Positions 5,930-60,034 of a stretch of 60,381 nt of DNA are shown one piece after another. A program made the translations under genes and the position numbers. Position 1 is the stretch's first letter. Every line of letters starts with the position of its first letter. The stretch is from positions 1-60,381 of IMG/VR virus record IMGVR_UViG_3300015256_000001. One strand, 5' to 3'. This DNA is from a virus. Its lineage: Duplodnaviria; Caudoviricetes. Below the pieces are notes generated by a model, which did not search any database, had not been told where the DNA came from, and saw nothing but the letters and a program-made list of their open reading frames with translations.

Positions 5930-6336
5930 GGCGTCCCAGCCAGTGCCCGCTTGATCTGGTTGTCAATCGTGGCGAGAACGGTCTTCCGGCCACCATTCGG
6001 CCCGCCGGACTCGCGGTGTCTGATGCGCGTCAGTACGTCCACGTCACGAATCTGGATCAGCATCTTCCGGAGATCGGTGAAGTGAATCTGGCGCACATCA
6101 AGTTGGCCCTTGGGCTCAGGTACCGGTACCGGTATGGGCTCCGGCTCCGGCTCCGGTTCAGGTTCCGGTTCAGGCTCAGAGACAACGACCGGGGCCGCTG
6201 CCACTGGCTCGTGATAGAGCTTGTAGGCCTCGTCGTAGGTCGTGGCCCATCCGATCCGCTTGGCGAGCATCCGCTCCGCCTCGAGATTCTCGAAGACCTT
6301 CCCATTCACGTCCGCGTAGTGATACAGCCGTGTCAT
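5926..6336 (-). CDS. Hypothetical protein with (EP)n linker
   Basis: 136 aa, start/stop overlaps with neighbours, C-terminal RKTVLATIDNQI helix. Confidence 0.7.
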   Translation of the reverse strand: MTRLYHYADVNGKVFENLEAERMLAKRIGWATTYDEAYKLYHEPVAAAPVVVSEPEPEPEPEPEPEPIPVPVPEPKGQLDVRQIHFTDLRKMLIQIRDVDVLTRIRHRESGGPNGGRKTVLATIDNQIKRALAGTP

Positions 6337-6782
6337 CAGTTGGTCACCGTGGGCTGTGGAGCCGGCACCCGAAGGAGCAGCATCCCGGTTGTGGCGTACT
6401 TGGAGTAGAACATCTCCATGTCAGACGGCCCTGACCATGACCCAAGACCGTCCCTGGCAGCGCCAGCGTTCGCCACCGCCTGGTCGAGTGGTAGGACATG
6501 GGTCAGCCACAGATGCGCGCCTGAGCGCGGCAGGACAAGGCAGAACATGTCCGGCGAGATCAGCCGGCCCTGCACGAGGCCGTAGAGCGCGTTGAAGATG
6601 CGCGTGGCCTTCACGCGGTGTGCTTCGACGGCCACGCGTTCTTGCCACATTCCACCTTCCGCCTTCTGCGCGCTCGCCAGCCAGCGCAGATGTTGCGCGG
6701 CCTCGTGATACCGCTCCATGAGGGTCAGCGCGAGGGAGGCTTCGACGCCGTTGGGTGGCCAGGGAGGCGACATCTCGTTCAT
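6336..6782 (-). CDS. Hypothetical protein
   Basis: 148 aa, overlapping start and stop with both neighbours. Confidence 0.6.
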   Translation of the reverse strand: MNEMSPPWPPNGVEASLALTLMERYHEAAQHLRWLASAQKAEGGMWQERVAVEAHRVKATRIFNALYGLVQGRLISPDMFCLVLPRSGAHLWLTHVLPLDQAVANAGAARDGLGSWSGPSDMEMFYSKYATTGMLLLRVPAPQPTVTN

Positions 6783-7900
6783 GTCGGCACCTCTTCCTTC
6801 TCGTTGACACTGCCACCCAGCGCAATGGCGGCATCGATCCTGCCGGCATGCTCTTGCTGGAACGTGTTCTTCAGGTGAATCCCACCGAAGGCGGCATCCC
6901 TCTCTTCTTTGTTGAGGAGCTTGTTCCTGTTGGGCCTCTCGCCTTCTTGAACGCCAGCCTGCATCTTCTGCGCGGCCCGAAGGTCAGCTTCGGCCTGAAT
7001 CTTCCTGGACTGGCGAGCGAGGATCTGGTCCGTCTTCTCGGCGTCGTAGTCGTTCTTCATGTCCAGTGCCGGCGTCTCGCCTTCCAATTGGGTCATCCAC
7101 GCCGGCTGCCGTGGATCCTGGTTGATCTTCTCCATCGCCGCCGCGAAGTCCTTGTTCTGCATCCGCTTCGCTTCCGCCTGCTTGAGTGCGGCTGGGTCGC
7201 CAGTGACGTCCACCAGCCGCTCCTTCGAGAGGGCCGGTTGCTGCGTGATGGCCTCGCGGAACCGCGCCACATCGAGCGCGTACTGCTCCTTCGTCAGGTC
7301 GTAGCCGTAGTCCTTCCCATGCGCGAGGTCATAGACCACCTCGTCGAGGAGGGTGCAGCCGGGCGGTGTGTGGACCTTGACGCCACGCCCAATGGCAATC
7401 CCGAGCCACATCTGGCAGTTGCCACGCTGCCGCTCGTACTCCGTCGCGTGGCCGTATTCGATACCCCACAGGCCGATGTCCGTCGCCCCGTAGATTAGGG
7501 CAAGGGCAATCTGGTAGGCCGTTTGTGAGCTGTAGTGAAGGCCGGGGAACTCCGTCCGCATCTGTTCGATGGGATTCCGCGCAGAGGCCGGCACATCCTT
7601 GTGCTGCTCCTGCATCATCACCGGGATGCGGCACCGCTGGAGATGCTCCCAGGCGTCATTTTGGCGCTCCGTGAACACGAACTCAGGGTGCATCTCCCAG
7701 AAGAGATCGACCCGGTTGGCCGGAAGAAAGTTGGTGGCGCTGATGTTGGCCCAGAACTCCCACGAGGGGTCGCTCCATGGCGCTGTCCAGAGTGTCGCGC
7801 GATATGTCCCGAGGAGTCCGATCTTCCGTGCGTTGCCAGGCCCCCACCGAATGGGGCGGTTTGCCAGTTTCTTCACATGCCCAGGTACCGTGATCGCCAT
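6779..7900 (-). CDS. Sialyltransferase/Maf-like glycosyltransferase-fold protein
   Basis: KIGLLG..APWSDPSWEFWA; SSQTAYQIALALIYGATDIGLWGIEY; EYERQR..WLGIAIGRG; start moved to ATG 7900 (AAGGAG upstream). Confidence 0.55.
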   Translation of the reverse strand: MAITVPGHVKKLANRPIRWGPGNARKIGLLGTYRATLWTAPWSDPSWEFWANISATNFLPANRVDLFWEMHPEFVFTERQNDAWEHLQRCRIPVMMQEQHKDVPASARNPIEQMRTEFPGLHYSSQTAYQIALALIYGATDIGLWGIEYGHATEYERQRGNCQMWLGIAIGRGVKVHTPPGCTLLDEVVYDLAHGKDYGYDLTKEQYALDVARFREAITQQPALSKERLVDVTGDPAALKQAEAKRMQNKDFAAAMEKINQDPRQPAWMTQLEGETPALDMKNDYDAEKTDQILARQSRKIQAEADLRAAQKMQAGVQEGERPNRNKLLNKEERDAAFGGIHLKNTFQQEHAGRIDAAIALGGSVNEKEEVPT

Positions 7901-7998
7901 CGTGATGCCACGCTCCTTGACGCTTGGGTCCGCGCGTCTAGCGGTCGCCAGGGCAATCCTGACGACCGCTATTGTAGGCCGGTTTCTCGATTGCGTTC

Positions 7999-8823
7999 TT
8001 AGAAGCTCGTGAACTTCTTCGCGACACCATCGACGTAGGGCCGGTCGATATAGACCGTGCCTATCCCACCTCCGACCGTGGGAGAGGTCAGTGTGGTCGG
8101 GTCCGACTGTGCCCACGCCCGCCAGATGATGTTGCCTCCGGCTGAGGTGAGGATGTCACCCGCGCCAGTGACCGCGATCATATCGGCCGCACTGGTTACG
8201 TTCGACGAGAGCAGCGCCGCCGTGTAGGTGCCGGCGTGGAGCCCCCACGAGAACGTGTCCGAAGCCGTCACCGTCTCGACGATGATCACGACCCGGCCCT
8301 TTGAGGCCGCACCGACCTGGGTCGCCAGACCGTTGGGATCGACCACCGCCCACTCGCCGACCTGGAACGCGTTCTGGCAGTCCACGAGCAGGTAGACGAA
8401 CCCGGTGTCCGGATCGACGCATTCGTGGTTGACCACCCTGTTCCGGGAGATTTCCACCCACGAGTCGTTGACGTAGCGATACGCCTTGGGGTCTTCCGCG
8501 CTGATGACGACCACCGGCAGCACCGCGACCTCGCTGGCCGTGACCGACCCTCGCGGCTTGGTCTGCGCGAAGTACTCGGCCCGGTCGAGCCAGCACACCG
8601 CGCCACTCGCGTGCTTGGACGCCCGCGTGCCGGCGTAGCCTCGCTGGACACCCACGATGCTGTTGAGGATGTCGTCAGGCTCGAGGCGGTTGACGAGCAT
8701 GACCTCCGTGTCCTGCACGAGGAGGTCGCCGACGAGTCGGCTGGTGACAGAGCTGACCTTGGCGAAGGTCTGAGACGCCGTCATTGCGGCCGACAGCGTC
8801 ACGGTGTTCAGATTGCGTGCCAT
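7999..8823 (-). CDS. Capsid decoration/minor head protein
   Basis: Directly after the coat gene; DTEVMLV..VQRGYAGTRASKHASGA motif seen in virion proteins. Confidence 0.6.
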   Translation of the reverse strand: MARNLNTVTLSAAMTASQTFAKVSSVTSRLVGDLLVQDTEVMLVNRLEPDDILNSIVGVQRGYAGTRASKHASGAVCWLDRAEYFAQTKPRGSVTASEVAVLPVVVISAEDPKAYRYVNDSWVEISRNRVVNHECVDPDTGFVYLLVDCQNAFQVGEWAVVDPNGLATQVGAASKGRVVIIVETVTASDTFSWGLHAGTYTAALLSSNVTSAADMIAVTGAGDILTSAGGNIIWRAWAQSDPTTLTSPTVGGGIGTVYIDRPYVDGVAKKFTSF

Positions 8824-8856: not shown

Positions 8857-10095
8857 TTACGAGCCAAGAATGCGGCACGCCATCTCGGGGCGCAGCACCT
8901 TCCATCCGCCCAGCACGTCGTACCGATCCACGACGCGATCCGGGCCACCTTCGTAGTACCGGATATGACGGATGCTCAGGTTGAGGTCATTGCTCGAGGC
9001 GCGCGAACCGTCCACGATGCCAGCCGGCGGCAAGTAGAGGTCGCACGTCGCGAACGTGATGAAGTCCTTGTGGTACGCCAAGCCCTGCGCCCCACCCACC
9101 CCTGCGTACGTCGAGGCGTGGCCGAACGTCAAGATGGCGTCGTTGTCCGCCGGGAGCGCCGTCACGTTCTGATACGGCCCGGTCGCCCGGATGGCTTCCG
9201 TGAGGTAGAGCGTCACGTTACCGGAACCGTCCGAACTGGCGTCTGCCGCCACCGCGAACGGGCGCAGCCGATCCCACGCGACCTTCGAGGACGGGTTCAC
9301 GCCGCGGCTGGACGCAAAGGTGACGATGTCGCCTTCCTTCCAGTAGCCAGTCACCGACGCCGAGGCGCCGTCAACGACCACAGACGTAGACCCTTCGGTC
9401 ACTCCGCCAGAGACGTTGACAAGAGGCGTGGTGCCAAGCGCGCCGGCTGTGTGACGGGCCACGTTCTGGTCCATCCCGAACTTGAAGCCCCAGGCCTTCC
9501 CCATTGAGCCATTCCGGTTCTGATCCGAGATGTCGCCCTGGTTGTTGAACTGGGTCGCCTGCGTGTTCAGGATCCCGCCCTGCATGGTCGGGTTGAGCAC
9601 CACGAACCGGCTCGATCCGGTCGGCACCGCGTTGTCCGACAGGCGCGAGCCCGCGTCGATGTAGACCTGGTTCGTGGTCGGGTTGACGCCCTGCACGCCG
9701 ACGTAGTGCGGGACCGTCTTGTAGGCCAGCGCGAGGCCGTCCGAGTCAATCATGTTGCAGATGACGTCCACCGCCGGCTGCATCACCTGTTCGCCGTAGT
9801 CAGTCAGGTTGAGGCTCAACTCCTGCGAGCTAAGCTTGACTGCCTGGTGGTACCGCGTGTTCAGGGTCAACGGTACGAGCTGATCCTGAATCGCCTCCGG
9901 CTCCGCCACTTCTCCACGGCCTCCGGAGAGGATCGGCGGCTTCCTGATGTTGATCGTGACACCCTTGTTCGCACCGGTCCCTCTCCATTCCTTCGACCAC
10001 TCGCGATTCACGGACATCGTGAACGCCAGCGTGTTCTTGAGCCGTGCCAAGAACGTGTTGGAGAGGATCTGAGAATTACGCAGGTCATTGGCCAT
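8857..10095 (-). CDS. Major capsid protein (P22 coat gp5 family)
   Basis: 412 aa; KGVTINIRKP, GFKFGMDQN, GLAYHKDF, RYDVLGGWKVLRPEMACRI. Confidence 0.93.
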   Translation of the reverse strand: MANDLRNSQILSNTFLARLKNTLAFTMSVNREWSKEWRGTGANKGVTINIRKPPILSGGRGEVAEPEAIQDQLVPLTLNTRYHQAVKLSSQELSLNLTDYGEQVMQPAVDVICNMIDSDGLALAYKTVPHYVGVQGVNPTTNQVYIDAGSRLSDNAVPTGSSRFVVLNPTMQGGILNTQATQFNNQGDISDQNRNGSMGKAWGFKFGMDQNVARHTAGALGTTPLVNVSGGVTEGSTSVVVDGASASVTGYWKEGDIVTFASSRGVNPSSKVAWDRLRPFAVAADASSDGSGNVTLYLTEAIRATGPYQNVTALPADNDAILTFGHASTYAGVGGAQGLAYHKDFITFATCDLYLPPAGIVDGSRASSNDLNLSIRHIRYYEGGPDRVVDRYDVLGGWKVLRPEMACRILGS

Positions 10096-10101: not shown

Positions 10102-11139
10102 CTACCTTTTTCCGCGCCGCTTCTGATCCGCGTCGTACCACTGGAGGAACTCGTCCGTCCCCATGGTCGCTGGATCTTTGGCGCTGATGGCCGAGCCCGG
10201 CACGACGGCCAGCGGCTCAGGCGCCTTGGTTGTTTTCTTGGCAGGGGCAACCGGCTTGACGGCCGGCGGCGTCCCGCCACTTTTGAGGGTCACAGCCAAG
10301 GCACCAATTTCGCGGACTTGATCGATGGGCTCGAGCGCGGCGATGCGCTCTGCCTCCTCCAGATTCTCTGGCTTGGCCAAGTGATACGCGAGAACCGGCC
10401 CCATCTCGCCAGACTTCAACATCGCCTGGTGCATGGGCGCCGGGAGTGGCGCGGCAGACGCGGATAGGACTGCGTCGAAGTCCGGGTGCGCGGCGCGGAA
10501 GCTCTCGATATGGGTCTTGCTGTCGGCGAGAAGCTTGCGCGTGGCACCCACGGCAGCGTTGTGAACCGCCCTGTCGTGTTCGACCTGACGGTTATAGGAC
10601 ATGCGCGCGTCCGTGCGCGCGTCGATGTAATCCTCGTGGCTCGACTCAGGATTCGCAGCCTGGTAGTCGTCCCACGTCTGAAACTGAAACTTAACTGGCG
10701 CCGGAGGCTCTGGCGCGGTAGGTTCAGCCGCTACTGGCTTACCTGCCCGCAGGGCCGCGAGCTCCGCTTCAAGTCTGGCGTTCTTGGCCTGAAGCGTGTC
10801 GAGATGCTGATCTCGATTCGCCAGCTTGGTGTTCAGGGCGATGATCCGCTTGACGTTCCGCTCGATCCGCGCACTCGCGGCCACAGGCGTCTCGTCCGCC
10901 GCTGGCTCCTCGTAACTCTCGTCAGCGACAGGGGCGGATACCGGTGCCGGTACGGCCGGCGTTTCGGGCTCTTCGACAGGCGTCTCCGCCGCTGCCTCTT
11001 CGGCTGGCGTCTCCGCTTCCTCCGCCGTGTGCGTGCCGTCAATCGCGGCCTGCAACTCGGCTTCGGTGTGCCCGTAAGACGTGATGGTCACGTCGTACTC
11101 GGCAGGCGGTTCGACGACTTGTGTTGAGCTTCCGGCCAT
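10102..11139 (-). CDS. Scaffolding protein
   Basis: Acidic N-terminus, coiled coil, HPDFDAV, GPVLAYHLAKPEN; upstream of the coat gene. Confidence 0.8.
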   Translation of the reverse strand: MAGSSTQVVEPPAEYDVTITSYGHTEAELQAAIDGTHTAEEAETPAEEAAAETPVEEPETPAVPAPVSAPVADESYEEPAADETPVAASARIERNVKRIIALNTKLANRDQHLDTLQAKNARLEAELAALRAGKPVAAEPTAPEPPAPVKFQFQTWDDYQAANPESSHEDYIDARTDARMSYNRQVEHDRAVHNAAVGATRKLLADSKTHIESFRAAHPDFDAVLSASAAPLPAPMHQAMLKSGEMGPVLAYHLAKPENLEEAERIAALEPIDQVREIGALAVTLKSGGTPPAVKPVAPAKKTTKAPEPLAVVPGSAISAKDPATMGTDEFLQWYDADQKRRGKR

Positions 11140-13388: not shown

Positions 13389-15761
13389 TCACCCCAACTC
13401 CGGCGCCGCTGATACAGGACTCGGCCGACCCGGCGCGACCGGCGCTGATGCCGCCGCCGCCTGAGCATCAGCCGCCTGGGCCTGGGCCGTGGCCTGCTGG
13501 AGGAACGTATTGATGCGCTCAATCTCGGCCTTGAGCAACAGCCGGCGGTCAGCGCTCTCCTCCGTCGTGATCAACTTGGCCAGATCGACATACATCTCCA
13601 TCGCCGCGATTTCCTTCTTCCCGGCGTAGTCGAGCCGCTTCGTCTCGATGATCCGCTCCTGTTCAGAGAGCTTCATCATCATGGCTCGCTCGCGTTCCTT
13701 CATCTCCTGCATCTGCTGGATGACTTGGGGCGGGATCTCCGGCGTGTTCTCGTCACCGTCGTCCCTGAGCCCTGGCGGGAGCATCTTATTGGCCCGATCC
13801 GCCATTCTCCGACCCACAGGCGTGTCGAGCAACTGGAGCAAGAGGTCCATCATGTTGACCGCGTAGCCTGGCGGCATCATCTTCATGACTTCGGTCACGA
13901 TGTCGATGTCTTCCTGCCTGCGGGAGCCCGGTGACGGCGCGGCGGTCACTTCGACGTCGTATTCGCCCGTCCCAATGTCGAATATCTCCTTGACGCCTTC
14001 GGGCATCTGGAAATTGGGGTCTTGGCGAGGGTCGTTGTCCTTGCCAGCGTAGACCATGATCGCCCGTTTCTTGCCGTCATCGCCTGTGATCCGCACAACC
14101 TGCGCGACGTCGTAGATTTCACGGAAGATCCTGATCAACTGCTTCCCGCCACTCGTGATGGCTATCCTCCGGTTCCGCGTGTAGTGGCTCTGGCTCATCT
14201 CGTCCTGCCGTTGGCGTGACGTGATGGCGCGGCCGCTCTCCTGTGGGCCGGATTCGCCGAGACTGGCGTCGTGCCACCGGGCCGTGGCCTTCATGTCGTT
14301 CTCGGCCTGCCTGATCGCGAGGTTCATCGACTGCAACCCCTGCGCTTCAGCGAACTGCCTTTGCGGAGGCGGCGCCACACGCCCATCCGGGAGCATGATC
14401 GGCTCCGTCTCGAGGAAGGCGTGCTTCTTCGACCCTGCCGTGGCCCAGGACTTCCGCATTGCGGTGTTCTCGGCCCCGAAGACCCCTCGGTAGCCCACGA
14501 ATGGGGCCTTCGGGAAGTCATTCACCGACTCGGCGAGGGCTGACACGTGGACGTTGTAGACCTTCTGGCTCCCCATCACGTCCTGCGTGACCCCACGGAG
14601 CTCTGTTTCGCCGTCGATAGCGCTCTCGTTGCCGATCATGGGGATGAACGGCTGCCATGGGGTTGGCCATGTCGTCTCGGAATGCACATACTGGGCGTCA
14701 ATCACGCGCCAGACCATCCGGCGGAGCTTCAGCGGCCGACTTCGACCGGTCCCGAACTGCTTCAGGAAGGCATCCTTGGCCGTCTTTTCCCATCCCTTGG
14801 CTCGATCCACGGTCAGCGGCGAGCCAGTGGCCATGAGCATCTGATCTTCTTGCTCTGCCTGCGCGAGGACGGCGTCTTCAAGCTCTTTTTCGTTCAGATC
14901 AGGCCCGTTTTTCATCTCGTAGAGGGTGGACGGCGTGTATTCCGCGCAGAACCAGTGCTTGATCGAAACTTTCTCGTCTGAGGGGAACCAATCGAGGCTT
15001 TCATCAACACCAGGACTGCCCTCAGCCCATGCCAGCATGGTCTTTTCCGGCCGAGCCTTCTTCCCGCCGTCGCCGTAGACCGCGTCCCAGGTGGCGATGT
15101 CGATGTCGGTGTCGTAGAACGCGAACTCCGCGTCCGATTGATCCTTCTCGGCCGCGCTCGAGTCCACTTTCACGCGGAATGGGTCGATGATCCGGTGAAG
15201 ACTGGCCTTCATCTTCCATGATTTGTCGTCGCAGTAGGACGTCCGGACCCAGAAGTAGCCCCGGCCCATCTCGCACTGAGCGTCTCCGGCCGTGCTGTAG
15301 ACGTCTTCCGCTACGCTGTTGACCTCCACGTTCCGAATGAGGCCAGCGAGGATCGCCGCTGTCTTCGGATCCGAATGATCATCGACCGGCTTGACCTGAA
15401 TCAGGAGGTTGGCCGCGTCACCCATGTTCCGGGCCATGTCCACAAACCCAGCGCACCGGTTCACTGTGACCACTGGACGGCGCTCTGCCTCCCGCTCCGC
15501 CACGATGTGCTCTGGCCATTGGTAGTGCTTGTTCCCCACCACGCCAAGGCGGAACCGGCGAGCCTCGATCATGTCCTGCCGGAGGCGCCGCTCTGACCTC
15601 ACCACGGACCTGTACTGCAACATCGCACGGGCGATCAGCCTCTCCTGGCCCTTCAGGTTCCGCATCTCCTCTGAGTCAACAGAGGGCGCCTGCTGGACGG
15701 CACTGGTGACTGAGATGGGATCGTGAGAGATTCTGATCTCGCCAGTTCCGTCTTCGGTCAT
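13389..15761 (-). CDS. Portal protein (P22-like)
   Basis: 790 aa; QW..RPVVTVN, GRGYFWV, PFIPMIG, ESGRAITSRQRQ, GEYDVEV; C-terminal helical barrel. Confidence 0.93.
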   Translation of the reverse strand: MTEDGTGEIRISHDPISVTSAVQQAPSVDSEEMRNLKGQERLIARAMLQYRSVVRSERRLRQDMIEARRFRLGVVGNKHYQWPEHIVAEREAERRPVVTVNRCAGFVDMARNMGDAANLLIQVKPVDDHSDPKTAAILAGLIRNVEVNSVAEDVYSTAGDAQCEMGRGYFWVRTSYCDDKSWKMKASLHRIIDPFRVKVDSSAAEKDQSDAEFAFYDTDIDIATWDAVYGDGGKKARPEKTMLAWAEGSPGVDESLDWFPSDEKVSIKHWFCAEYTPSTLYEMKNGPDLNEKELEDAVLAQAEQEDQMLMATGSPLTVDRAKGWEKTAKDAFLKQFGTGRSRPLKLRRMVWRVIDAQYVHSETTWPTPWQPFIPMIGNESAIDGETELRGVTQDVMGSQKVYNVHVSALAESVNDFPKAPFVGYRGVFGAENTAMRKSWATAGSKKHAFLETEPIMLPDGRVAPPPQRQFAEAQGLQSMNLAIRQAENDMKATARWHDASLGESGPQESGRAITSRQRQDEMSQSHYTRNRRIAITSGGKQLIRIFREIYDVAQVVRITGDDGKKRAIMVYAGKDNDPRQDPNFQMPEGVKEIFDIGTGEYDVEVTAAPSPGSRRQEDIDIVTEVMKMMPPGYAVNMMDLLLQLLDTPVGRRMADRANKMLPPGLRDDGDENTPEIPPQVIQQMQEMKERERAMMMKLSEQERIIETKRLDYAGKKEIAAMEMYVDLAKLITTEESADRRLLLKAEIERINTFLQQATAQAQAADAQAAAASAPVAPGRPSPVSAAPELG

Positions 15762-16497: not shown

Positions 16498-16787
16498 TCG
16501 TCGAACTCCTTGTAGAACACCTTCCCGTCGCTGATCCGCTTCAGGTTCAGCTGATACCGGCTGTCGCCGCACTCTGGGTCAAGTTCGCCTGCGTATTGCT
16601 CTCCGCCATACCTGATGAAACTCAGCTGCCGGCAGCAATCGCAGGCCATATTCCCGTCAGACCAGTAGAACGAGTCAGGGTCGTTGGATTCAGCCAGATC
16701 GACTTTCGCCAGATCGCGTCCCTCTCGCACCTCTCCAGTTGCCACGTTCCGGATCCGCACCAATACCTGCTCATCTGTCTCACTCAT
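16494..16787 (-). CDS. Cys-rich phage hypothetical
   Basis: FYWSDGNMACDCCR..ECG; ATGA overlap with terL. Confidence 0.6.
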   Translation of the reverse strand: MSETDEQVLVRIRNVATGEVREGRDLAKVDLAESNDPDSFYWSDGNMACDCCRQLSFIRYGGEQYAGELDPECGDSRYQLNLKRISDGKVFYKEFDE

Positions 16788-18235
16788 GACATCCACCCCT
16801 GCGACTGCCCGCCACTGAACTTTGCGTACTCGTCCTCTTCCGCCTTCTCTACCTCGCCCTCTGGTACCTGGTGTCGAATCGCGAGGCCGCGAAACGCATC
16901 CGATCCGTGGCTCGCCCAGTTGTGAACCGGCGTCCCGGTATACTCCCCGGTCTGCGTGTTCTTCCGCTTCCGGTAGTGCCGAAGGCACTCGATGCCACGG
17001 TCACACCGCGTCTCGTCAAACCAGCATTTTGAGAGGAACAACCGCGAGGCTGTGATCCCCTCCGCCAATCCAAGGCCTGGGCGAGGATACTCGAACGTCA
17101 AGCCCAGCGAGGCCGCCGTCTCGCGCCGGCTCTTCCCGGTGCCCAACTCCCTCACTTTGATGTCCGGCGGCGGATAGTGCCGGCCGTAGACATACCCGAG
17201 CTTTTCGCGTCTCTCAGCCAATACCGTCACGAAATGCGGGAAGCCCTCACCGGTCGCTTCGTAGTAGTCAATCAACCTCACCTCGCCTGATCGGAACGAC
17301 TGGCTGAACCAGATCGATGTACTGTCGTCGATCCCGAGATCCCAATCGGTGTCCACCGGCAGCGCCGGATCGTGCGGCACGCGCGTGATCCGCCCCTGCG
17401 CCTTCGCGGCGGCCATCTCCTTCCGATAGAACGACCCCTGGATGCTGGCGTCAATGGACAGGAACCATTCCTGGTCGTAGGCGTCCTGCGTCATCAGGGC
17501 CTTGGCGATCTGCTTCCGGTCGTCCTCCATGGCTTGTTCAAGTACCTGAATCGTGATGCCGGCCTCCGTCGCGAGGCTCTGGTCCACGTCCTGCCACAAG
17601 GTGAACCACTCCGGATCGTCCTTCGACGCCATGTAGGTCTGCCAGAGCTGATCCTTCCCCTTCAACGTGCCGGCGAAGATCGCGTAACCCAAGTGGTCGC
17701 CAAGGCCCTTCGAGATGACCTCCGAGTAGATCGAGTTGTCCATCTGCGGATACTCGTCGAAGCTGACCCCGGAGAACCCAATCGACCGGAAACTGTCAGG
17801 GTTGTCCGCTCCGAAAAGTTGCAGCTTGTTCCCGGTGGGATACCGGATCAGCAACTCTGACTCGTTGAACTGCACCCCAGGTACTACACGCGCGAAGAAC
17901 TTCAGCCGGTCCCATGCCGCCGCCTTCGCCTGCGCCCGTAAGGGCAGGATGTTGCCGTAGTGCCGCCCGCCTGGCGGGTTCATGAGTTCGCGTAGGTTAG
18001 CCTCGGTGAGGCTGGGCCGGAGGTGGAGCAGCCTGTTTCGCTCCCAGTTGTCGTCTGTCGCCGCCCGCTGATGATGGTTGATGATCGCCGTGGTCTTGCC
18101 GGCGCGACGGTGGAGAATGAGCGCGGCGAAGCGGCACAGGCTGGCGTGGAACCGTTTCCCCCATCGACGTGGGGCATACGGCACGTCCACAATCGTGGGT
18201 TCAGGCTCAGGTTTCGGAGCGGCCTTGAATTGCAC
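16784..18235 (-). CDS. terL: Terminase large subunit
   Basis: Walker A HRRAGKT, GADNPDSFRS, FDEY, nuclease WDLG.DD and HGSDAFR. Confidence 0.95.
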   Translation of the reverse strand: MQFKAAPKPEPEPTIVDVPYAPRRWGKRFHASLCRFAALILHRRAGKTTAIINHHQRAATDDNWERNRLLHLRPSLTEANLRELMNPPGGRHYGNILPLRAQAKAAAWDRLKFFARVVPGVQFNESELLIRYPTGNKLQLFGADNPDSFRSIGFSGVSFDEYPQMDNSIYSEVISKGLGDHLGYAIFAGTLKGKDQLWQTYMASKDDPEWFTLWQDVDQSLATEAGITIQVLEQAMEDDRKQIAKALMTQDAYDQEWFLSIDASIQGSFYRKEMAAAKAQGRITRVPHDPALPVDTDWDLGIDDSTSIWFSQSFRSGEVRLIDYYEATGEGFPHFVTVLAERREKLGYVYGRHYPPPDIKVRELGTGKSRRETAASLGLTFEYPRPGLGLAEGITASRLFLSKCWFDETRCDRGIECLRHYRKRKNTQTGEYTGTPVHNWASHGSDAFRGLAIRHQVPEGEVEKAEEDEYAKFSGGQSQGWMS

Positions 18236-23182: not shown

Positions 23183-23202
23183 CCGTACCGGTACCGGTAC
23201 GG
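23183..23202. repeat. 20-bp perfect palindrome CCGTACCGGTACCGGTACGG (member of a dispersed family)
   Basis: Identical 20-mer at 28338-28357; 14-bp core also at 6121, 32756 and 53426. Confidence 0.95.
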
Positions 23203-23221
23203 CCTCCTCGCCGGCCACTAG

Positions 23222-23400: not shown

Positions 23401-23412
23401 CTGTGGTCTAGC

Positions 23413-27680: not shown

Positions 27681-28706
27681 CTATGGCGGCCGGCCGTCCC
27701 AACTCTCCCATTCCGCCACGTCTTGCTCGTGCTTCTCTTCTGGTGTTGGCTCTTCTGGTGTTGGCTCTTCTGCCTGCGCCTCCCCATACACCGCCCAGCC
27801 CTCCGCCCTCGTGCTCGCGAACAACTCGAGGTAGGGGCCGTCGTACATCTTCTCGATCATCTTCCGGAACGATTCGGGCTTGGCGGATTCATACTCTTGC
27901 GGCCGCTCCGTCACTACCGAATCCATTTTCGGTGTTGGATGGTCCGGAAGACAGACCCCCCTAGTGCAGATCAGAAGATGCTCATGCCTGAGCGCGACGT
28001 AGTTGTTGAAGCTGGACCTGACCTTGTCCCACACAAACCCGGACTTATGTGTAAACCCCCAGGCTTCGATGACTTCGCGAGGCCCCGGATTCGCGAGGAG
28101 AATCGACGGCCATACCCAGATGAGCAAGACCGCATCAGGGGCGGCGTGGGCGGCGATGGGCATCGCGCACAGGTCGCTGTAGCGTTGACTCCAGGGTGGA
28201 TCGGCATAGATGACCCGGTACTGCCCCTCGAGCCTGGCTTGGCCGGAGATGATGCGGCGCCGCTTCGACGCCCTGATCTCGTTCCGGAGCTCGCGTTGAC
28301 TCCAGCCCTCCGTTTCAGCCTTCTCCAGCCACTCCGCCCGTACCGGTACCGGTACGGAGGCGACCTCTGCGTGGTGGCCGAAGGACACACCGGCCCGCCT
28401 TTGGTCGATGGGGATCTGTGCGACCGTGCGGATGTTCTTCAGGGTGGATTCTTCCAGCCCGGTGGCGTCGGTCGCCTGCGAGAGCTTCTCTGACCAGTCG
28501 GCCCGGTCCTCGCCATACCGGAGCCAGTCCGCTAGCCAGAAGCCAGACCTGGCGTGCGCTCGCTTGATGAAGTCCCCGGCGCCCATGTACTCGCCCCAGG
28601 ATGGCGAGCCGGTAATCTCCAGGCCGCACGGCAGGAGGGTAAAGCAGCCGATCTGGATCGGCTGCTCCACGGGCTGCTTCTTCGCGATGCCCTTCGCCAT
28701 GGTCAC
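27681..28706 (-). CDS. LmbU-like HTH fused to MT-A70 family N6-adenine methyltransferase
   Basis: FWLADWLRYGE..TLKN..SFGHHAEVA..GWSQRELR; YADPPW, WGF, HEHLLIC, SAKPE, YLELFA. Confidence 0.8.
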   Translation of the reverse strand: MTMAKGIAKKQPVEQPIQIGCFTLLPCGLEITGSPSWGEYMGAGDFIKRAHARSGFWLADWLRYGEDRADWSEKLSQATDATGLEESTLKNIRTVAQIPIDQRRAGVSFGHHAEVASVPVPVRAEWLEKAETEGWSQRELRNEIRASKRRRIISGQARLEGQYRVIYADPPWSQRYSDLCAMPIAAHAAPDAVLLIWVWPSILLANPGPREVIEAWGFTHKSGFVWDKVRSSFNNYVALRHEHLLICTRGVCLPDHPTPKMDSVVTERPQEYESAKPESFRKMIEKMYDGPYLELFASTRAEGWAVYGEAQAEEPTPEEPTPEEKHEQDVAEWESWDGRPP

Positions 28707-32604: not shown

Positions 32605-32918
32605 GACTTCGCCTCGAACAACAGGTCTAGCCGCTTCAGGAAGGCCAGCCCCTCGCTGTGCATGAACCCGCTGTCTGGCTCGTTCAGGTCGTAGTGCTTC
32701 CAGGCGGACCACGCCGCCACGATTTGCTCTTTGGTCACGCCGACTGGCGCGGCCGTACCGGTACCGGTATCCGCCAAGGCGATCCCGTGCATGTCGATCA
32801 CCTCGCCGTGCTCCTTGTTGGTGTGGAACGTGTGCTGATACTCCGCCTTCTCGAGGAGCGCCCGGATCTCCGCATAGGCGGATGCGGATACCTCCAGCAC
32901 GGCGTAGGTGTGGCTCAT
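32601..32918 (-). CDS. Phage hypothetical
   Basis: THTYAVLEVS-like N-terminus, IDMHGIAL. Confidence 0.65.
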   Translation of the reverse strand: MSHTYAVLEVSASAYAEIRALLEKAEYQHTFHTNKEHGEVIDMHGIALADTGTGTAAPVGVTKEQIVAAWSAWKHYDLNEPDSGFMHSEGLAFLKRLDLLFEAKS

Positions 32919-41657: not shown

Positions 41658-41848
41658 TCGACGACGACGGCGCGTGCTTCCACGCGTGCTCGCACTGGAT
41701 GCCTCTGCCGGAGCTGCCGGCGAAGCGCAAGCGCGTGAGTCTGGAGAAGAACCAATCACGACCCTGACACTACCAGTGCCGGTACGGGTGGCCAAGAGGA
41801 TCCGCGTGTCGTGTGGCGCCGTGTTGATAGGTTGCCATTCCATCTCCA

Positions 41849-43644: not shown

Positions 43645-43653
43645 GTTGCCTCC

Positions 43654-51500: not shown

Positions 51501-54500
51501 CCCTCTTTCCTGACCGTGGGCGGATCATAGCCTGGCATGGACGTGCGCTGCCCAAGTGTCTCTAGCTCACCCTTCCACCGCTTGTCGTGCCTCTTGATCC
51601 TCAAGACGGCAATATCGAAGTCGTGGCCCGCCTCGTGGACGGCGGCCCGGAGATCCTCCGCCACCTTGAGGCGGATCATGCGCGCCCTGTTCTTGTAGAT
51701 TCCGCGCGCCCCACGCATCCCTATGCGGCCGGCTCGAATGGGGACGCGTTCGAGTGCAGCCGTGAGGCTCTTGATGATGGCGGACGGGCTCATCGACGCA
51801 TCGCGTTGTGGCGTTGGCCCTCGCGGCTTGGTGAACGCCGGGACGCCCTGATCGTACTCGCCAGGCATCCGCGACACGTCATCGTCCTCGAACTCGTCCG
51901 GGTCGAACGACGCGTCACCGTCAGCTTCTTCTTCTGAATCTGACTCCACGCCAGATCGCCACGAATCGCGCCACCATGGCGTCCCCGGCTTCATATCGGC
52001 GCGCTTGGCCAACTCACTCGTGCCTGGGTGGGTGACCCCCTTGACACCAACATCGCCAAGGCGGGCAATGTCGTCGAGTGCCGCGAGAAGATCATCCTGC
52101 GTCTCGATGTGACTGAAACGCGGATCCTGCTGGAGGCTCGTCACGATGTCGTCCACGCTGAACCCGGCTTGACGTTTCCCGCTCACCTTGTCGTTCTTCT
52201 TCGTCCGGAACACATTCGGCACGCCACCAAAATTGCCGTATGGCCCGGCCCATTCCCGGAGACGACGCAGTTCTCCAGCCAGCCCACCTCCGCCTTCGGC
52301 CTGAACGCTGATGCCGCCGGCAGCCACGATGGCCTCGAGCAATTCGCGTGGGTTGTATCCGGACTCAGCTACCTCGGCGTCGAGCGATTCGATGAAGTCC
52401 ACGCGAGCCTCGAACTCGGCCCGCACCGCTTCGACGTCTACGTCTGGGTCAACTCGGACGGCGTCGGCGACGATGGCGGCGTAGACGTCTGAGTAGTGGT
52501 CGTCGCGTCTGGCTTTGGCGGCTTTGGCCGACTCGACTCGGCCTGGCGGAGCACTCGCCGCAACGCGACGGACGGGTATACTCCCGTCTTCACGAGGCGT
52601 CTCACTTCTTGCTGGTTGGCTTGGCTCAACATTGGGTGCGTCTCCTCCAAATAATCCGCCCTGGCTACCCTTCGTCGCCGTCGAGGCCTCACTGGATAGG
52701 CTGAACGGCACATCTAGTTGCGGTGTCGGGATGTTCTGCTCACGCACGTTTTCAGCGCCAGCTAGACGCGGCTGCAACTCGCCCGTGTCGAGCACGTCAA
52801 CGACAGGCGCGGAGACTGGCGGCTCAACGGCCGGCGCGGACACGGCCTCTGCTTCAGCCGGCGGCTTGGCTATCTTCCCAGCCGCCGTGACCGCCTCACC
52901 GTACCGATCAATCGCCTTCCCGTAGTCGTCGAACTTGACGAGGCTCACGAGGTTGCCTGAGTCTTCGTCCATCACGCGTATGAAGCCGGCGCGGCCAGAT
53001 TGATACAACTCGTACGACACGCCGTCGATGGATCGGTTTGCCTTCCTGGCCACAGGGCTGCCCATAAGGCTAGAGGCAATCTTCACAGGCGCAGGAGCGT
53101 CTACGGCTGGCGCTGGTTCTATTGGCGCCGCTACCGGCTCAGTGACCGGCGCTGCCGGTGGAGCCGGCGCGAACATCGCATTCGCATCGGCCACCATCGC
53201 CATTGGGTCGCCGTCAGCCACCGACTTGAACCATGCCTTGGACTTGTCGCCATACCGATACCCGGCCCGTTCCATCAACCGGCGCGTGGCGAGATCCGGC
53301 TTCTGATCCTCTGGGAAGGCAATCTCGACCGTCTTCCGCTCTGGGTTGTAGCGCGCAACTGGCCCGGTCGCGATTGGCGCCGCCGGCTCGCTTTGAGGCG
53401 CAGTAGGAGACTCCGGCGCGGGCTGTACCGGTACCGGTATGGGTGCCGTGACTGGGGCCGTGACGGGTGGCTCAACCGCTGGAGGCGCGACAGGCGGTTC
53501 AACCACAGGAGCCGGTGTCGGAGGCTCCCTAACAGGAGTAGGCACTACCGGTGCCGGCGCAGGTTGAATCGGTGGAGCCACCGGAGGCGCGACAGGCTGA
53601 GGCTCAGTCGGCGCGATGGGTGGCGCGACCGGCGTCGGTGCAACCGGCGGAACTACCGTCGCCGCTGGAGGCTGTGCCGGCGTGGCTACTGGAGCCGTCA
53701 GCGCGCTCTTGATCTGCGCTCCGCTGCCCATGACCGCACCGGCAAGCGTGCCCATCACGAGTGCTTGGTCTACGCCGGTTTCCCATGGACGCCCGGCAGC
53801 CTTGTTCTCGAGGATCGTCTCCTGAACCGATTGCGGCAGTTCTTCGAGTACCGCTTCCTGGACGGTGCCGGCCACAACCGCCTTCGTGAGCGACTTACGC
53901 GCGGCTGGGTCCTTGATCGCCGCCGCGAGCATCGTGTCCACATCCACGATCCCCCACGACTTCGCCAGCTTGGCCCCGAGCGCGCCAATGACGCTCGTCC
54001 CAGCACCAGCCGCTACAGATAGAGCCGACTGTGCCGGCGTAAGCGTGCCGTCTGGCGCAGCCTGCCTCAACGAGGACGCCATCTGCCCGGCGGTCACGGC
54101 GCCTTCGCCAGCCGCCGCACTCGCGACGAGTGGTAGCCCAGCCTTAATGAGTCCGCGCGCCACGCCGGCTCCACCCACCATGGATGGCGCTGACTCCACC
54201 ACGTTATGCACGATGGTCGAAGGGTTCTTGATCGCCGCGATGGCCGTCTCGAGGATGCCATCAGCTTCTTCGACTGACCGGTTGGCCTGCTTCTGCTGGT
54301 CGCTGTACCAGCTACTCAGGATCTCCTTCGCGAGGGCTGGTTGGAATCCGACTGATTCGAGCGCCTTGCCGACTCTCCCTCCGGTGGGGATGTCGGCGAG
54401 ACCCACCACGGCCTCTGGGATACCAATCGCGCCCTTGACGGCAGAGATGCCTAGATCCGCGACACGCTCAAGGAATGTTGCCGGCTTAGCCTGTGGCGGC

Positions 54501-54961
54501 TCAACATACCGCCCGCCGTGCTTCAGCATCAAGGCCTCGAACGGATCTTCGGAGGCAGGCTCAGGCTTCGCGGCAAGTTGTGCGGCCGACTTCTCGTCCC
54601 ACCCAAGCGTCACCAGTTCGGCCGCGTCCTTCGCTCTCGGCGTCCCAGGCACACGCTCGCCGGTCTGCACATGAAACCCGCCAACTACGATCTGCGGATG
54701 CCCAGGCTTCTTGAAGTCAGATGGCCAATGGCCCGTGGCATCAGGAGCCGCACCAGCCTTGAATGCCGCACGGTAGTCGTACTGCTGCTGAGGGCTGTCC
54801 GGATCTGCGTCGAGCCCGTAGCGTTTCGCGGCATCTGAGTACCACGCCCGGAATGCGATCTCGTCTGGCTGCGGCCGCGTGGGCGGAGGAGGCGCCGGCT
54901 CGACATACCGGCCCCCATGCTTGAGCATGAGAGCTTCAAACGGATCGACTTGTGACGGCAT
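48587..54961 (-). CDS. Giant ejected polyvalent protein (LPD38-like C-terminus, zincin HExxH domain)
   Basis: 2124 aa; AAVHEAGH..EGAAEF; YEEKPEWEKHAYW..IAKPF; Pro-rich linkers; follows the ejection genes. Confidence 0.8.
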   Translation of the reverse strand: MPSQVDPFEALMLKHGGRYVEPAPPPPTRPQPDEIAFRAWYSDAAKRYGLDADPDSPQQQYDYRAAFKAGAAPDATGHWPSDFKKPGHPQIVVGGFHVQTGERVPGTPRAKDAAELVTLGWDEKSAAQLAAKPEPASEDPFEALMLKHGGRYVEPPQAKPATFLERVADLGISAVKGAIGIPEAVVGLADIPTGGRVGKALESVGFQPALAKEILSSWYSDQQKQANRSVEEADGILETAIAAIKNPSTIVHNVVESAPSMVGGAGVARGLIKAGLPLVASAAAGEGAVTAGQMASSLRQAAPDGTLTPAQSALSVAAGAGTSVIGALGAKLAKSWGIVDVDTMLAAAIKDPAARKSLTKAVVAGTVQEAVLEELPQSVQETILENKAAGRPWETGVDQALVMGTLAGAVMGSGAQIKSALTAPVATPAQPPAATVVPPVAPTPVAPPIAPTEPQPVAPPVAPPIQPAPAPVVPTPVREPPTPAPVVEPPVAPPAVEPPVTAPVTAPIPVPVQPAPESPTAPQSEPAAPIATGPVARYNPERKTVEIAFPEDQKPDLATRRLMERAGYRYGDKSKAWFKSVADGDPMAMVADANAMFAPAPPAAPVTEPVAAPIEPAPAVDAPAPVKIASSLMGSPVARKANRSIDGVSYELYQSGRAGFIRVMDEDSGNLVSLVKFDDYGKAIDRYGEAVTAAGKIAKPPAEAEAVSAPAVEPPVSAPVVDVLDTGELQPRLAGAENVREQNIPTPQLDVPFSLSSEASTATKGSQGGLFGGDAPNVEPSQPARSETPREDGSIPVRRVAASAPPGRVESAKAAKARRDDHYSDVYAAIVADAVRVDPDVDVEAVRAEFEARVDFIESLDAEVAESGYNPRELLEAIVAAGGISVQAEGGGGLAGELRRLREWAGPYGNFGGVPNVFRTKKNDKVSGKRQAGFSVDDIVTSLQQDPRFSHIETQDDLLAALDDIARLGDVGVKGVTHPGTSELAKRADMKPGTPWWRDSWRSGVESDSEEEADGDASFDPDEFEDDDVSRMPGEYDQGVPAFTKPRGPTPQRDASMSPSAIIKSLTAALERVPIRAGRIGMRGARGIYKNRARMIRLKVAEDLRAAVHEAGHDFDIAVLRIKRHDKRWKGELETLGQRTSMPGYDPPTVRKEGAAEFFVLYASDPEAAEYEAPKYFAEFERRLEQQPKLRDAVHGVRTQLMGYLALTPADQLRLKMDRSRDNQIVSLARAVAENPKATIHDVVARTIDRFTWVDVAMDDMSSGQPRDYAADGYVLARLAQGSASQAEGFLTTGVYGPDAVKLSDGLADALEGVKEHLAEFEHYLYAVHAMERLKVGKNPGVTKAQADDMIAQARARPDFAKFEEAAKKVYAYQSALLEYARSRGAFSTDQFKAITLAYESYVPLMRVQEATEGIFSGVARRLANRTVPVKRATGSGLTVIPPLESIIGNTFAIVDMVEKNRAMVALAEAAEKATDKKHSSGKWMDRVAPDKIPTTFELSRLTKEIQKALEDAGMEDLPDNLSEAFEQLVTVFTPATYVAPNGEQIVTLIRNGKREFWQVNHTGLYEAITQMGPRDAAGVIRLGFAGVASVLRTTATTTPSFIIRNFTRDSLVSWLQSKYGLIPVYDQVLAMIELTRGSEAAKLFAVSGVSQAALVGSDRRHRQDAVRQLSGQRLSVAQTVLNPLELMKVAWSALQHASQAVESATRFAEFKLALEAGGKERGVMRRLLEGDKDYAGTSDSILARAALAARDVSTDYQRGGTIVKEFSQFKAFLNAKVQSWVRMGETFKRDPEGTLLKLGTIAFFSAALWFLRGDDKEYEEKPEWEKHAYWFIKLPGTEGYAKIAKPFDYAYAGDIMEAGLDYMKKGDPQRFKQMQEDWFPGFDDPDFAKRTVLNMMPTAIMPVLEAFANYSAFRDAPIVSPWEVQGLPLEDQYSQWTTETAKTIQKILPIFSPAQIDHILFGWTTSVGRTSAKAVDAVVGLAKGETPKSFDPMRDLPVVGTVYDTGEMMGSGQSVGDLYDLARAYETLTASVRSKRARGNNEAADKQVAETDLPLERARYIRLAVDRVGVLGKRIKSLQALPAAVMKPEAKQAAIRNIRNQMIDVSRVALGRRPLPSPQPETD

Positions 54962-58890: not shown

Positions 58891-58893
58891 CTA

Positions 58894-59121
58894 CTACACC
58901 GATGCGATGGTCTGATTCACCAGCTTGTCGCGCAACTCCACGACGAGCCGTGAGGCAATCCAATTGGTGAGCAACTCGCGGGCCTTCGCCATGACGTCCG
59001 CTTCGTCGGCGGCCTCGAACACGATCACGTCCACCGTCATGCCTCCGTCGTCCACGATCTCCGTGGTCACAGAGACGCCGGCATTCTTCGTCGTGAGCCG
59101 CACGCATTTCATGTGATACAT
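58894..59121 (-). CDS. Small hypothetical (possible fibre chaperone)
   Basis: 75 aa after the adhesin gene. Confidence 0.55.
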   Translation of the reverse strand: MYHMKCVRLTTKNAGVSVTTEIVDDGGMTVDVIVFEAADEADVMAKARELLTNWIASRLVVELRDKLVNQTIASV

Positions 59122-59131
59122 GGCAGTGATT

Positions 59132-60034
59132 CTACGCTAGTTCAAGAGACAGTCCACCATCTCCGCCTTTGCCGCCTGAGCCTGAATCCACCTCGCCGCC
59201 GCCACCGCCACCGCCTCCGCCGCCGAGATACCTGGCCCCAAAGGGAACTCCGCCGCCAGCTCCGCCGCCACCGCCATCTTCCGTCCCGGTACCGGTACCG
59301 CCTTGTGAGCCGGGGTTCGCATCGTACGGCGAATCACTAGGGCTTGGCGCATCGCCGTTCTCGTCCTCAGCGCCTCCAGCCCCACCAGTCTGACCATCGC
59401 CGTCGCCGCCGTCGCCGCCGACGCCACCGTTCGAGACATCAGGACCACCTCCGCCGCCTCCACCCGCGCACCCGGTCACGTTGTCCACCGCGTTGTTCCC
59501 GCTGCTGCTGTACGGCCCGCCACTGCCGCCAGCCGTCCCGGCTACCGCGCCACCACTCGCCGTGTAACTCCCGCCTGAGACTGCCCCACCGTTTCCGTTG
59601 TCGTCTGGGTCTGGGACACCGCCGGTTCGCCCACCTTGGATGTTGAGCACATAGGCGCCGCCAGCCCCGACACGAAAGTAGGTGTCTGGCCCGTCCGTCT
59701 CGTCATTCCCGACGCCGAAGGATCCCGTGTAGACCAACGCTACGAGCGTGTGCGATACGCCAGTGAGGTCGCTTCCCCCGCCACCGCCACCACCACCGCC
59801 CGTGGAGTTGGCTCCGTCCACGAGCCCTGGCGCGCCACCTCCACCTGCCGCCACGCCCTTGACTCGGATCGCCACGCCGCTCTTGTTGAACGTGAACGTG
59901 TAAGACCCAGCCGTGGTCAGAATCAGCGGCCCGGACGCGAAACTATGGACCCCAGAGGCCGCGCCTGAGTACGTGACGATCAGATCGCCGATCCGGCGGA
60001 GAGGCACCGCGAGGAGTGGCGGGCTGTGCATCAT
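59132..60034 (-). CDS. Glycine-rich tail-fibre adhesin (gp38-like polyglycine protein)
   Basis: Multiple GGGGG runs; directly after the tail fibre (TGATG overlap). Confidence 0.7.
   Translation of the reverse strand: MMHSPPLLAVPLRRIGDLIVTYSGAASGVHSFASGPLILTTAGSYTFTFNKSGVAIRVKGVAAGGGGAPGLVDGANSTGGGGGGGGGSDLTGVSHTLVALVYTGSFGVGNDETDGPDTYFRVGAGGAYVLNIQGGRTGGVPDPDDNGNGGAVSGGSYTASGGAVAGTAGGSGGPYSSSGNNAVDNVTGCAGGGGGGGPDVSNGGVGGDGGDGDGQTGGAGGAEDENGDAPSPSDSPYDANPGSQGGTGTGTEDGGGGGAGGGVPFGARYLGGGGGGGGGGEVDSGSGGKGGDGGLSLELA

Follow-up and report, generated by a model that had tools for sequence, protein, structure and literature searches.

What does it mean when a phage with little DNA between its genes carries the same long palindrome at eight places, most of them inside genes? 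We have addressed this question for TACCGGTACCGGTA, a 14-bp palindrome that recurs throughout the genome of an uncultivated freshwater-sediment phage (Duplodnaviria; Caudoviricetes; IMG/VR record IMGVR_UViG_3300015256_000001). The window analyzed is the complete viral record of 60,381 bp, in which a 123-bp terminal repeat defines a circle of 60,258 bp. The GC content is 0.61-0.65, the coding share is ~92%, and the minus strand carries nearly all genes, the exception being a block at ~23.4-26.8 kb. Genes were taken as open reading frames (ORFs) scored by codon use, with no gene caller, and Pfam and/or PHROGs were searched with ~85 of these; statements below that a protein was not found refer to these scans.

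The palindrome had been noticed from the DNA letters alone, and the eight positions and sequences given in that original prediction are all correct. Five copies are exact (starting at 6121, 23186, 28341, 32756 and 53426), those at 10939 and 59284 have one mismatch and that at 41771 has two; a ninth match, at 23180, is copy 23186 read 6 nt out of register. The copies at 23.2 and 28.3 kb indeed have in common the 20-mer CCGTACCGGTACCGGTACGG. For the exact word, base composition gives a chance expectation of 2.4e-4 per genome, in line with the earlier estimate of ~2e-4. In dinucleotide shuffles (n = 100) the mean number of matches with up to two mismatches was 0.04, compared with nine observed, and none of the 100 reached nine. 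No other 10-, 12- or 14-mer of the genome is repeated as often as the word and its sub-words.

Besides being a palindrome, the motif is a tandem array of a hexamer, GGTACC/ACCGGT, that is itself palindromic. Its dyad symmetry is perfect, extending to 20 bp in copies 23186 and 28341; the outer positions are partly conserved, and the center GGTACC is retained in six of the eight copies. The copy at 59284 was correctly placed in the original prediction, but instead of a one-mismatch copy it is better read as a perfect palindrome of shifted phase, CGGTACCGGTACCG (59287-59300), i.e., the same (GGTACC)n array about another center of symmetry. Outside the copies the component hexamers are ordinary in number (GGTACC 18 against 12.8 expected, ACCGGT 37 against 34.4).

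Other palindromes are strongly avoided by this genome. GTCGAC is absent where 29.9 are expected, as are TGCGCA (15.8), TTCGAA (14.0) and GTGCAC (11.9); CACGTG and AGATCT occur once each (15.5 and 14.6 expected) and CCGCGG five times (30.3 expected). GTAC is the most avoided 4-mer of all. The retention of a 14-bp palindrome is therefore conspicuous. The avoidance is itself a signature of restriction, and could help in guessing the restriction-modification (R-M) systems of the host. Separately, the palindrome CGGATCCG occurs at 10 places (2461...55731) without conserved flanks, where base composition predicts ~2, and CGATGATCCGCT or its complement occurs four times; their recurrence may be a codon-pair effect.

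Does the repetition reside in the proteins, or in the nucleic acid that encodes them? We shuffled synonymous codons 2000 times, keeping each protein and the codon use of each gene and holding the intergenic copy fixed. The mean counts were 1.0085 exact copies (5 observed), 1.15 with up to one mismatch (7 observed) and 3.08 with up to two (9 observed), and the observed value was reached in 0/2000 shuffles in every class. The same was true of 2000 permutations of codons within genes. Moreover, the proteome has three PVPV peptides, and CCGGTACCGGTA, i.e., CCG-GTA-CCG-GTA, encodes every one of them, with GTA making up just 117 of the 1443 valine codons (8.1%). Short repeats arise easily in peptide segments of low complexity, and several copies are in such segments, so that an artefact of Pro-Val or Gly-Thr dipeptide repeats, of codon bias or of assembly might be suspected. 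The shuffles, the use of a rare codon and the existence of a non-coding copy all speak against this, and the dipeptide-repeat explanation is ruled out. The same sequence is present in several freshwater-sediment metagenome runs; the contigs of the runs compared are of low depth and identical in sequence. Those of run X3, which has a different run and study code, show zero differences across copies 28341, 32756 and 41771, and the copies are therefore no artefact of a single assembly. We give artefact of any kind practically no credence; the repeat family is a real feature at the level of the nucleic acid.

The copy at 28341 provides a direct comparison of the DNA word with protein conservation. 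It lies in the gene for an MT-A70 methyltransferase, which has hundreds of two-domain homologues of equal length; conservation was read from an alignment of the best 120, which are 48-58% identical. At the site of the motif there is no difference in length across the 120 homologues, and PVPV is found in none of them. V118 stands where 100/120 have L, V120 where 88/120 have P, V122 where 107/120 have E or D, and R123 where 119/120 have Q. Since there is no insertion or deletion relative to the homologues and conserved columns have been replaced, this copy is an equal-length replacement that costs conserved residues, and no insertion. Alignments at copies 10939 and 32756 show no clear added length, and the linkers there are variable. 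The codon shuffles, the coding of PVPV and the replaced columns together place the action of selection or copying at the level of the nucleic acid. The claim of selection at the DNA level thus stands insofar as the signal is not in the protein; the same data allow selection or copying, and DNA or RNA.

Where do the copies lie? As predicted, they are read in different frames: Pro-Val in four (6121, 10939, 28341 and 53426) and Thr-Gly in three (32756, 41771 and 59284), with the Tyr-Arg frame unused and copy 23186 non-coding, in a 5' untranslated region (UTR). Six or seven of the eight are intragenic and one or two non-coding. The coding copies sit in linkers or low-complexity segments (Table 1). 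Copy 6121 falls in an (EP)n-IPVPVP-EPK linker, and copy 10939 reads VPAPVS in the acidic N-terminal linker of the scaffold. Copy 28341 reads VPVPVR where the N-terminal domain joins the catalytic one. The sequence DTGTGT of copy 32756 starts a variable linker directly after a conserved N-terminal domain; copy 53426 reads IPVPVQ in a Pro/Thr/Ala-rich linker at residue ~508, and copy 59284 reads GGTGTGTE in a Gly-rich part of its ORF. Copy 41771 (RTGTGS) stands apart: it is upstream of the exonuclease domain, for which the PHROG match begins at residue 102, and its coding status is doubtful. The exonuclease ORF starts with 'MEWQPINTAPHDTRILLA' (41655-41852, minus strand), which by eye resembles the start of a separate small phage protein; there follows an Arg/Ser/Ala-rich stretch that by eye looks non-coding, and then the nuclease domain. 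This upstream part may be a decayed or fused gene.

Table 1. Copies of the palindrome and principal annotated genes of the window
Feature	Position	Strand	Setting or match
Copy 1, GGTACCGGTACCGGTA	6119..6134 (exact 14-mer 6121-6134)		136-aa ORF 5926-6336(-)
Copy 2, one mismatch, TACCGGTGCCGGTA	14-mer 10939-10952, block 10933..10958		Scaffold gene 10102-11139(-)
Copy 3, perfect 20-bp palindrome CCGTACCGGTACCGGTACGG	23183..23202		Non-coding, 5' UTR of 75-aa ORF 22947-23174(-)
Copy 4, same perfect 20-bp palindrome CCGTACCGGTACCGGTACGG	28338..28357		MT-A70 gene 27681-28706(-)
Copy 5, exact 14-mer	32756-32769, block 32750..32775		105-aa ORF 32601-32918(-)
Copy 6, two mismatches, TACCAGTGCCGGTA	41771..41784		5' part of ORF 41085-41852(-)
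Copy 7, exact 14-mer	53425..53439		LPD38 polyvalent protein gene 48587-54961(-)
Copy 8, one mismatch	59284..59300 (14-mer 59284-59297)		300-aa ORF 59132-60034(-)
Major capsid protein (MCP)	8857-10095		
Scaffold	10102-11139	-	
Portal	13389-15761		
Large terminase (TerL)	16784-18235		
PEP-CTERM protein	26918-27631	-	Pfam E=6e-6
MT-A70 methyltransferase	27681-28706	-	
Acb2/Tad1-hairpin protein, 200 aa	28703-29305	-	Pfam E=4.5e-11
C5-methyltransferase fragment	29755-30453	-	
DnaB-type helicase	30450-31832		
SF2 helicase	34330-36213		
HNH-like protein	40080-40472		
Exonuclease domain	within ORF 41085-41852	-	
Erf	41849-42772		
Baseplate-J-like protein	43701-46025		
LPD38 'polyvalent' protein, 2124 aa	48587-54961	-	

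How did the copies come to be so alike? Copies 10939 and 32756 have a common block of 26 nt (25/26 bases identical), in opposite orientation and in different reading frames. Their flanks match at 12/12 positions; in 2000 sets of eight random positions the maximum was 10, seen six times. These two copies are related by copying. The family as a whole has an information content of ~29 bits, against ~13 bits needed to specify eight places in 60 kb. From the common block, the matching flanks and the excess of information we conclude that at least part of the family has spread by short-patch copying, whether or not selection then keeps the copies.

The whole family might on this basis be a selfish or neutral micro-repeat, a palindromic patch that spreads by template switching or short-patch gene conversion and is kept where it is tolerated, with no function. 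The phage has an Erf-type annealing protein and an exonuclease as possible helpers, the five letter-perfect copies and the surplus bits are as expected of recent descent, placement in linkers is what purifying selection alone would allow, and there are tandem duplications of hexamers elsewhere in the genome. The last point cuts both ways, however: of the 18 runs of period 6 of at least 14 nt, six consist of the motif unit and the remaining 12 are of 11 kinds, and generic slippage fails to account for one unit six times. The replacement of four conserved residues at 28341 without added length is a cost unexpected of a neutral element, the longest copy lies at the junction of promoter and 5' UTR, and a genome that purges other palindromes so strongly has kept this one. 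No RAYT/IS200-type transposase or other mobilizing enzyme was found among the ORFs, although such an enzyme could be host encoded. We consider a functionless repeat unlikely, although it is the leading alternative.

Tentatively, and with rather less than even confidence, we take the copies to be operators, together forming an array, for a DNA-binding protein that is dimeric and of two-fold symmetry, most likely a putative phage-encoded one. That a protein binds, which one it would be and what its binding would do are here inferred from the sequence. The full site would be an 18-20-bp palindrome, CCG-TACCGGTACCGGTA-CGG, a length typical of sites at which a dimer touches two major grooves in succession. 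The strongest copy, 23186, has a promoter-like element on one side and, on the other, the first gene of a small operon that runs leftward, and a protein bound there would block or tune expression of the operon. The other copies lie inside long transcription units of the same strand, where a bound protein might be a roadblock or serve to mark the whole genome. We propose that the sites are in linkers because there is almost no non-coding DNA: they would have been put into tolerant linkers and low-complexity segments in the only two harmless frames, Pro-Val and Thr-Gly, some at least by copying a short patch from another copy.

Copy 23186 lies between GAGGAGG and ATG, 12 nt upstream of the ATG, and directly downstream of TGGCATGCGGCATGCT, a sigma-54-like -24/-12 element. 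An inverted twin of this element is found ~190 bp from the copy, directed into the plus-strand block. An inverted repeat of ~46 nt frames the divergent region (23215-23262 and 23362-23408), and each arm contains TGGCAT-N6-TGCT, with cores at 23222-23237 on the minus strand and 23385-23400 on the plus strand. These are the only exact matches to TGGCAY-N6-TGCW in the genome. The sequence has the GG-N10-GC spacing of sigma-54 -24/-12 promoters, and suggests a divergent pair of putative promoters, either of sigma-54 type or phage specific. Scans for sigma-70 promoters and terminators over ~22-27.8 kb gave nothing above shuffled sequence, and a search for a secondary motif within 150 nt of the copies returned GC-rich 7-8-mers alone.

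Is there a protein that could bind? Four proteins had been named as DNA binding in the original prediction. One of them, 27681-28706, is the MT-A70 methyltransferase; the other three are weak leads or none. The product of 37400-37867 is HTH_17/excisionase-like in a protein atlas (score 0.84), with one structural row meeting the HTH_17 bar, and its C-terminus has by eye a heptad-like helical tail. That of 21915-22394 has weak ribbon-helix-helix neighbors (scores 0.76-0.80). No match to 24229-24525 was obtained in Pfam, PHROGs or sequence searches of the PDB, and PDB sequence searches with four candidate proteins gave nothing meaningful. To these may be added 36171-37181, which has a domain of Terminase_2 type and belongs to the replication module, a long way from the large terminase. 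We regard 37400-37867, 21915-22394 and 36171-37181 as leads only to a candidate binder.

Two of these genes have other features of note. A 44-nt repeat (75% identity) occupies two intergenic gaps, 37905-37948 and 43651-43694, and reads on the minus strand TTGACA, 18 nt, TAATCT, which by eye is sigma-70-like; the elements precede the HTH-like gene 37400-37867 and gene 43315-43656. Positions 24294-24403 (plus strand) of ORF 24229-24525 are matched by many diverged contigs from four metagenome runs, from which we conclude that the ORF is conserved in other, different phages or bacteria living in these sediments. Its product looks SpoVG-like by eye, with no library match.

We also looked for the palindrome in related phages. 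The nearest cultured TerL sequences are 34-38% identical and belong to Rhodoferax phage P26218, Pelagibacter podophages and an Ochrobactrum phage. When 25 kb was compared by megablast with 50,697 phage records, nothing matched. A TerL search identified 80 loci, mostly 33-42% identical with a few partial matches at 48-54%, and in addition two short contigs at 64-66%. With MCP as query there was one locus in IMG/VR (34% identity) and one 2-kb fragment among metagenome contigs (L219; 80% identity), which spans none of the copy sites; searches with the portal and DnaB found no relatives. Among genome contigs, TerL identified nine from metagenome-assembled genomes (MAGs) of five phyla. No copy with up to two mismatches is present in the 80 TerL loci together with L123 (~0.85 Mb, the unrelated L124-L127 set aside), nor in the nine MAG contigs and the metagenome fragment. 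The 80 loci of MT-A70 relatives (1.03 Mb) have no copy with up to one mismatch and four single words with two; among the top-ranked repeated words listed for these and 47 further loci there is no comparable long palindrome, just GC-only 10-mers that fit common codons. Altogether the loci scanned amount to ~1.9 Mb of distant relatives. Scanning IMG/VR for the 14-mer gave single chance matches among the matches listed; the one listed contig with two sites (L008/G001) has a local tandem repeat and no portal relative. A scan for the 18-mer gave two unrelated single matches, one in a record with one site in 35 kb. A literature search for the word itself brought up cloning primers only.

Several observations weigh against operators. 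The intragenic copies are placed without consistent regard to where genes or promoter-like sequences begin or lie, which is unusual for operators. No lysogeny module was found, with neither an integrase nor a CI/Cro-type repressor among the ORFs, and there is thus no obvious setting for silencing of the stoperator type. The surplus of information and the matching flanks fit a spread by copying that requires no function. The candidate proteins are tied to the motif only by their presence in the genome. Lastly, no relative was found that is near enough to show whether the motif is conserved; the nearest (TerL at 64-66% and the MCP fragment at 80%, on contigs of 2-8 kb) carry no copy, and the syntenic but distant contig L186 (TerL 66%, MCP 31%, scaffold 30%) has an ordinary linker without the motif at the scaffold position of copy 10939.

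The position of copy 23186 between a Shine-Dalgarno-like GAGGAGG and the ATG also invites an explanation at the level of RNA. Every copy would be transcribed on the sense strand of the minus-strand operons, and a hairpin formed by it, with a 5-8-bp stem and a GUAC loop, might act in mRNA processing, stability or translational control, and at 23186 it would bring the two elements close together. In the minimum-energy structure the 20-nt copies fold into stems of 8 bp (23186) or 7 bp (28341), and one of the two changes in copy 41771 keeps a G-U pair on the mRNA strand. However, seven of the eight folded contexts are no more stable than shuffles, and the exception, 6121, pairs the motif with adjacent GGCTCC repeats and not with itself. 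Copies that have the 14-mer only give 5-bp stems, where they self-fold at all. A hairpin has no need of a self-complementary loop, yet the GGTACC center is retained in six of the eight copies, and no Rfam family reaches its gathering score anywhere in the window. Because the word is a palindrome, roles in DNA and RNA are inseparable from sequence alone; being blind to strand, it offers nothing positive for RNA over DNA. An RNA hairpin has in our view a small likelihood.

The distribution of the copies around the genome bears on a further alternative. The copies had been described as lying every 4-12 kb, and the gaps on the circle are indeed 4.4-12.2 kb. For all eight copies the spacing is more even than random, both by the minimum gap (4415 bp; P = 0.002) and by a low coefficient of variation (P = 0.007). 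For the seven best copies the corresponding values are P = 0.014 and 0.22, and for the five exact copies the evenness is not significant. Evenness being significant only with the weakest copy counted, we take it as suggestive only. It might nevertheless point to an array that organizes the chromosome in the manner of parS/ParB, KorB-OB, Noc or matS, serving partition, compaction, protection or translocation; an analogy of this kind had been the original proposal. The copies are spread over all modules without clustering at promoters, and the palindrome is of a size like that of parS or OB. The proposal found no support: no ParB/ParBc, ParA/CbiA, KorB, SMC-like or Noc-like protein was found, and the ORFs also lack functions of the kind that would make partition necessary (integrase, plasmid-prophage or telomere). 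As had been said, the word does not match the canonical parS consensus. In 401 sampled Pseudomonadota genomes the word is not enriched, being present in 15, at most twice in each, and rarer than its reversed control, and five MAGs with a related TerL have 0-1 one-mismatch copies each, the host of the phage not having been identified. We think that there is rather little chance of an organizing array of known type.

A more speculative idea, to which we accord a slight probability, combines the spacing with the copying. The copies might be a self-propagating genome tag, an approximately even series of docking sites at which a phage protein of no known family would coat, bridge or mark the chromosome, distinguishing self from host or competitor DNA or shielding it. 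Short-patch copying would write such a tag into genes, even where conserved residues are lost by it, and the tag would provide a ParB-, Noc- or KorB-like function without a ParB homologue. Two other roles were rejected by reasoning. A Chi-like role is at odds with the excessive length and the symmetry of the word and with its lack of enrichment in the bacterial genomes that were sampled. Roles of the topoisomerase, dif or telomere kind are at odds with the presence of several copies and with the absence of genes for such enzymes.

Could the palindrome be a target for one of the two phage methyltransferases or for an endonuclease of phage or host, such as the HNH protein, and so be a decoy, a mark or a programmed break site? 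The array contains three GTAC and two CCGG sites together with ACCGGT and GGTACC. The phage encodes an MT-A70 adenine methyltransferase, a C5-cytosine methyltransferase fragment and an HNH-like protein; one perfect 20-mer lies inside the MT-A70 gene itself, and the strong avoidance of restriction sites indicates that R-M pressure is real. Yet GGTACC and ACCGGT are not unusual in number outside the copies, and methyltransferases of the MT-A70 and C5 families recognize 4-6 bp, not the 14-20 bp of the motif. Contigs from other runs have no joints at the copies, although contigs are blind to nicks and to the ends of reads. A nuclease that cut both strands at eight sites of its own genome would need a protection system, and none was seen. 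We regard a restriction or nuclease target as very improbable. The C5-methyltransferase ORF 29755-30453 (232 aa) covers Pfam model positions 4-99 of 324 only, the first third, so that a split, a truncation or a frameshift is possible; nothing matched the next ORF, 29369-29767, in the profile scan.

Some further features of the genome may be recorded. The Acb2/Tad1 protein 28703-29305 is a candidate sponge for cyclic-nucleotide defense signals (anti-CBASS or anti-Thoeris). The PEP-CTERM sorting motif at the end of the 26918-27631 protein implies a Gram-negative host with an exosortase. A 15-nt tandem repeat of three copies (26271-26322, plus strand) lies in a 50-aa pentapeptide-repeat mini-ORF (26214-26366), where contigs of two other runs have joints going back 39 and 45 nt; this points to variation in copy number between populations. 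Three direct repeats of ~303 nt, ~70-80% identical, lie within 1-1308 on the minus strand, in a gene that spans the junction of the circle, and 222-nt direct repeats lie within 1599-2017 on the same strand. These are repeated domains of probable tail or fiber proteins.

How does the array of palindromes compare with known systems? Genome-wide arrays of a single site are known in few phage groups, namely the stoperators, the Cluster O repeats and the operators of P1 and phiC31, and most are unexplained or tied to lysogeny. The present case shows with unusual clarity a DNA word prevailing over the protein, by rare codons, by the use of two frames and by the equal-length replacement of conserved residues. 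If a binder were found, the phage would offer a compact model of a dense virus that writes regulatory or organizational signals into its genes and, as a new recognition pair, a protein with its 20-bp DNA site. Should a selfish patch be the true explanation, no in-frame palindromic repeat described in a phage would be smaller.

Among arrays with an identified protein, KorB-OB of IncP plasmids, parS/ParB, Noc-NBS and MatP-matS are multicopy palindromes of 13-16 bp that need a ParB-family protein or MatP; there are 12 OB sites on a 60-kb IncP plasmid, some of them far from promoters. Size and the presence of several copies per replicon are points of likeness, whereas no such protein was detected here and the sequences are unrelated. 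The P1 C1 repressor and the CIRs of Streptomyces phage phiC31 are examples in which one regulator serves ~15-20 operators over a genome, and the CIRs are palindromic. Those sites are mostly in promoters or intergenic regions of temperate phages; most of the copies studied here are within genes, and no lysogeny genes were detected in the phage. The Rickettsia palindromic elements (RPEs) and the REP/RAYT system are likewise palindromic repeats spread by copying, RPEs lying in frame within genes at tolerated places and REPs being extragenic. These are insertions of 30-150 nt that add length, in contrast to a unit of 14-26 nt that replaces sequence at 28341 without added length, in a genome where no RAYT-type gene was found.

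The stoperators are 13-bp sites oriented with transcription, at which a monomeric repressor acts as a roadblock. Like the present copies they are many near-identical sites over a whole phage genome, including the interior of transcription units. The stoperators, described in Cluster A mycobacteriophages, are asymmetric and tied to the immunity repressor of temperate phages (PMC9283540); the present word is a perfect palindrome, in a genome in which neither repressor nor integrase was found.

The closest published case is the unexplained 17-bp dyad repeat of the Cluster O mycobacteriophages (PMC4351075). These phages have >30 invariant copies of 5'-TGTTCGGNNNCCGAACA and no integrase or parAB; about one third of the copies are intragenic, or two thirds if those near the 5' end of a gene are counted (PMC4351075). 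Both are short, near-invariant inverted repeats dispersed through a phage genome of ~60-70 kb and lying partly in coding regions, and the present phage has eight copies (five exact) around the whole circle, both intergenic and intragenic. The differences are that the sequence is another one, has no 3-bp spacer and is also a tandem hexamer; that there are eight copies instead of >30, and six or seven of the eight are intragenic instead of about one third; and that one copy overrides conserved residues and two share their flanks. The host lineages are unrelated, the nearest TerL sequences here being those of phages of Proteobacteria. We place the palindrome family with this known kind of dispersed phage repeat, here in an unrelated phage lineage.

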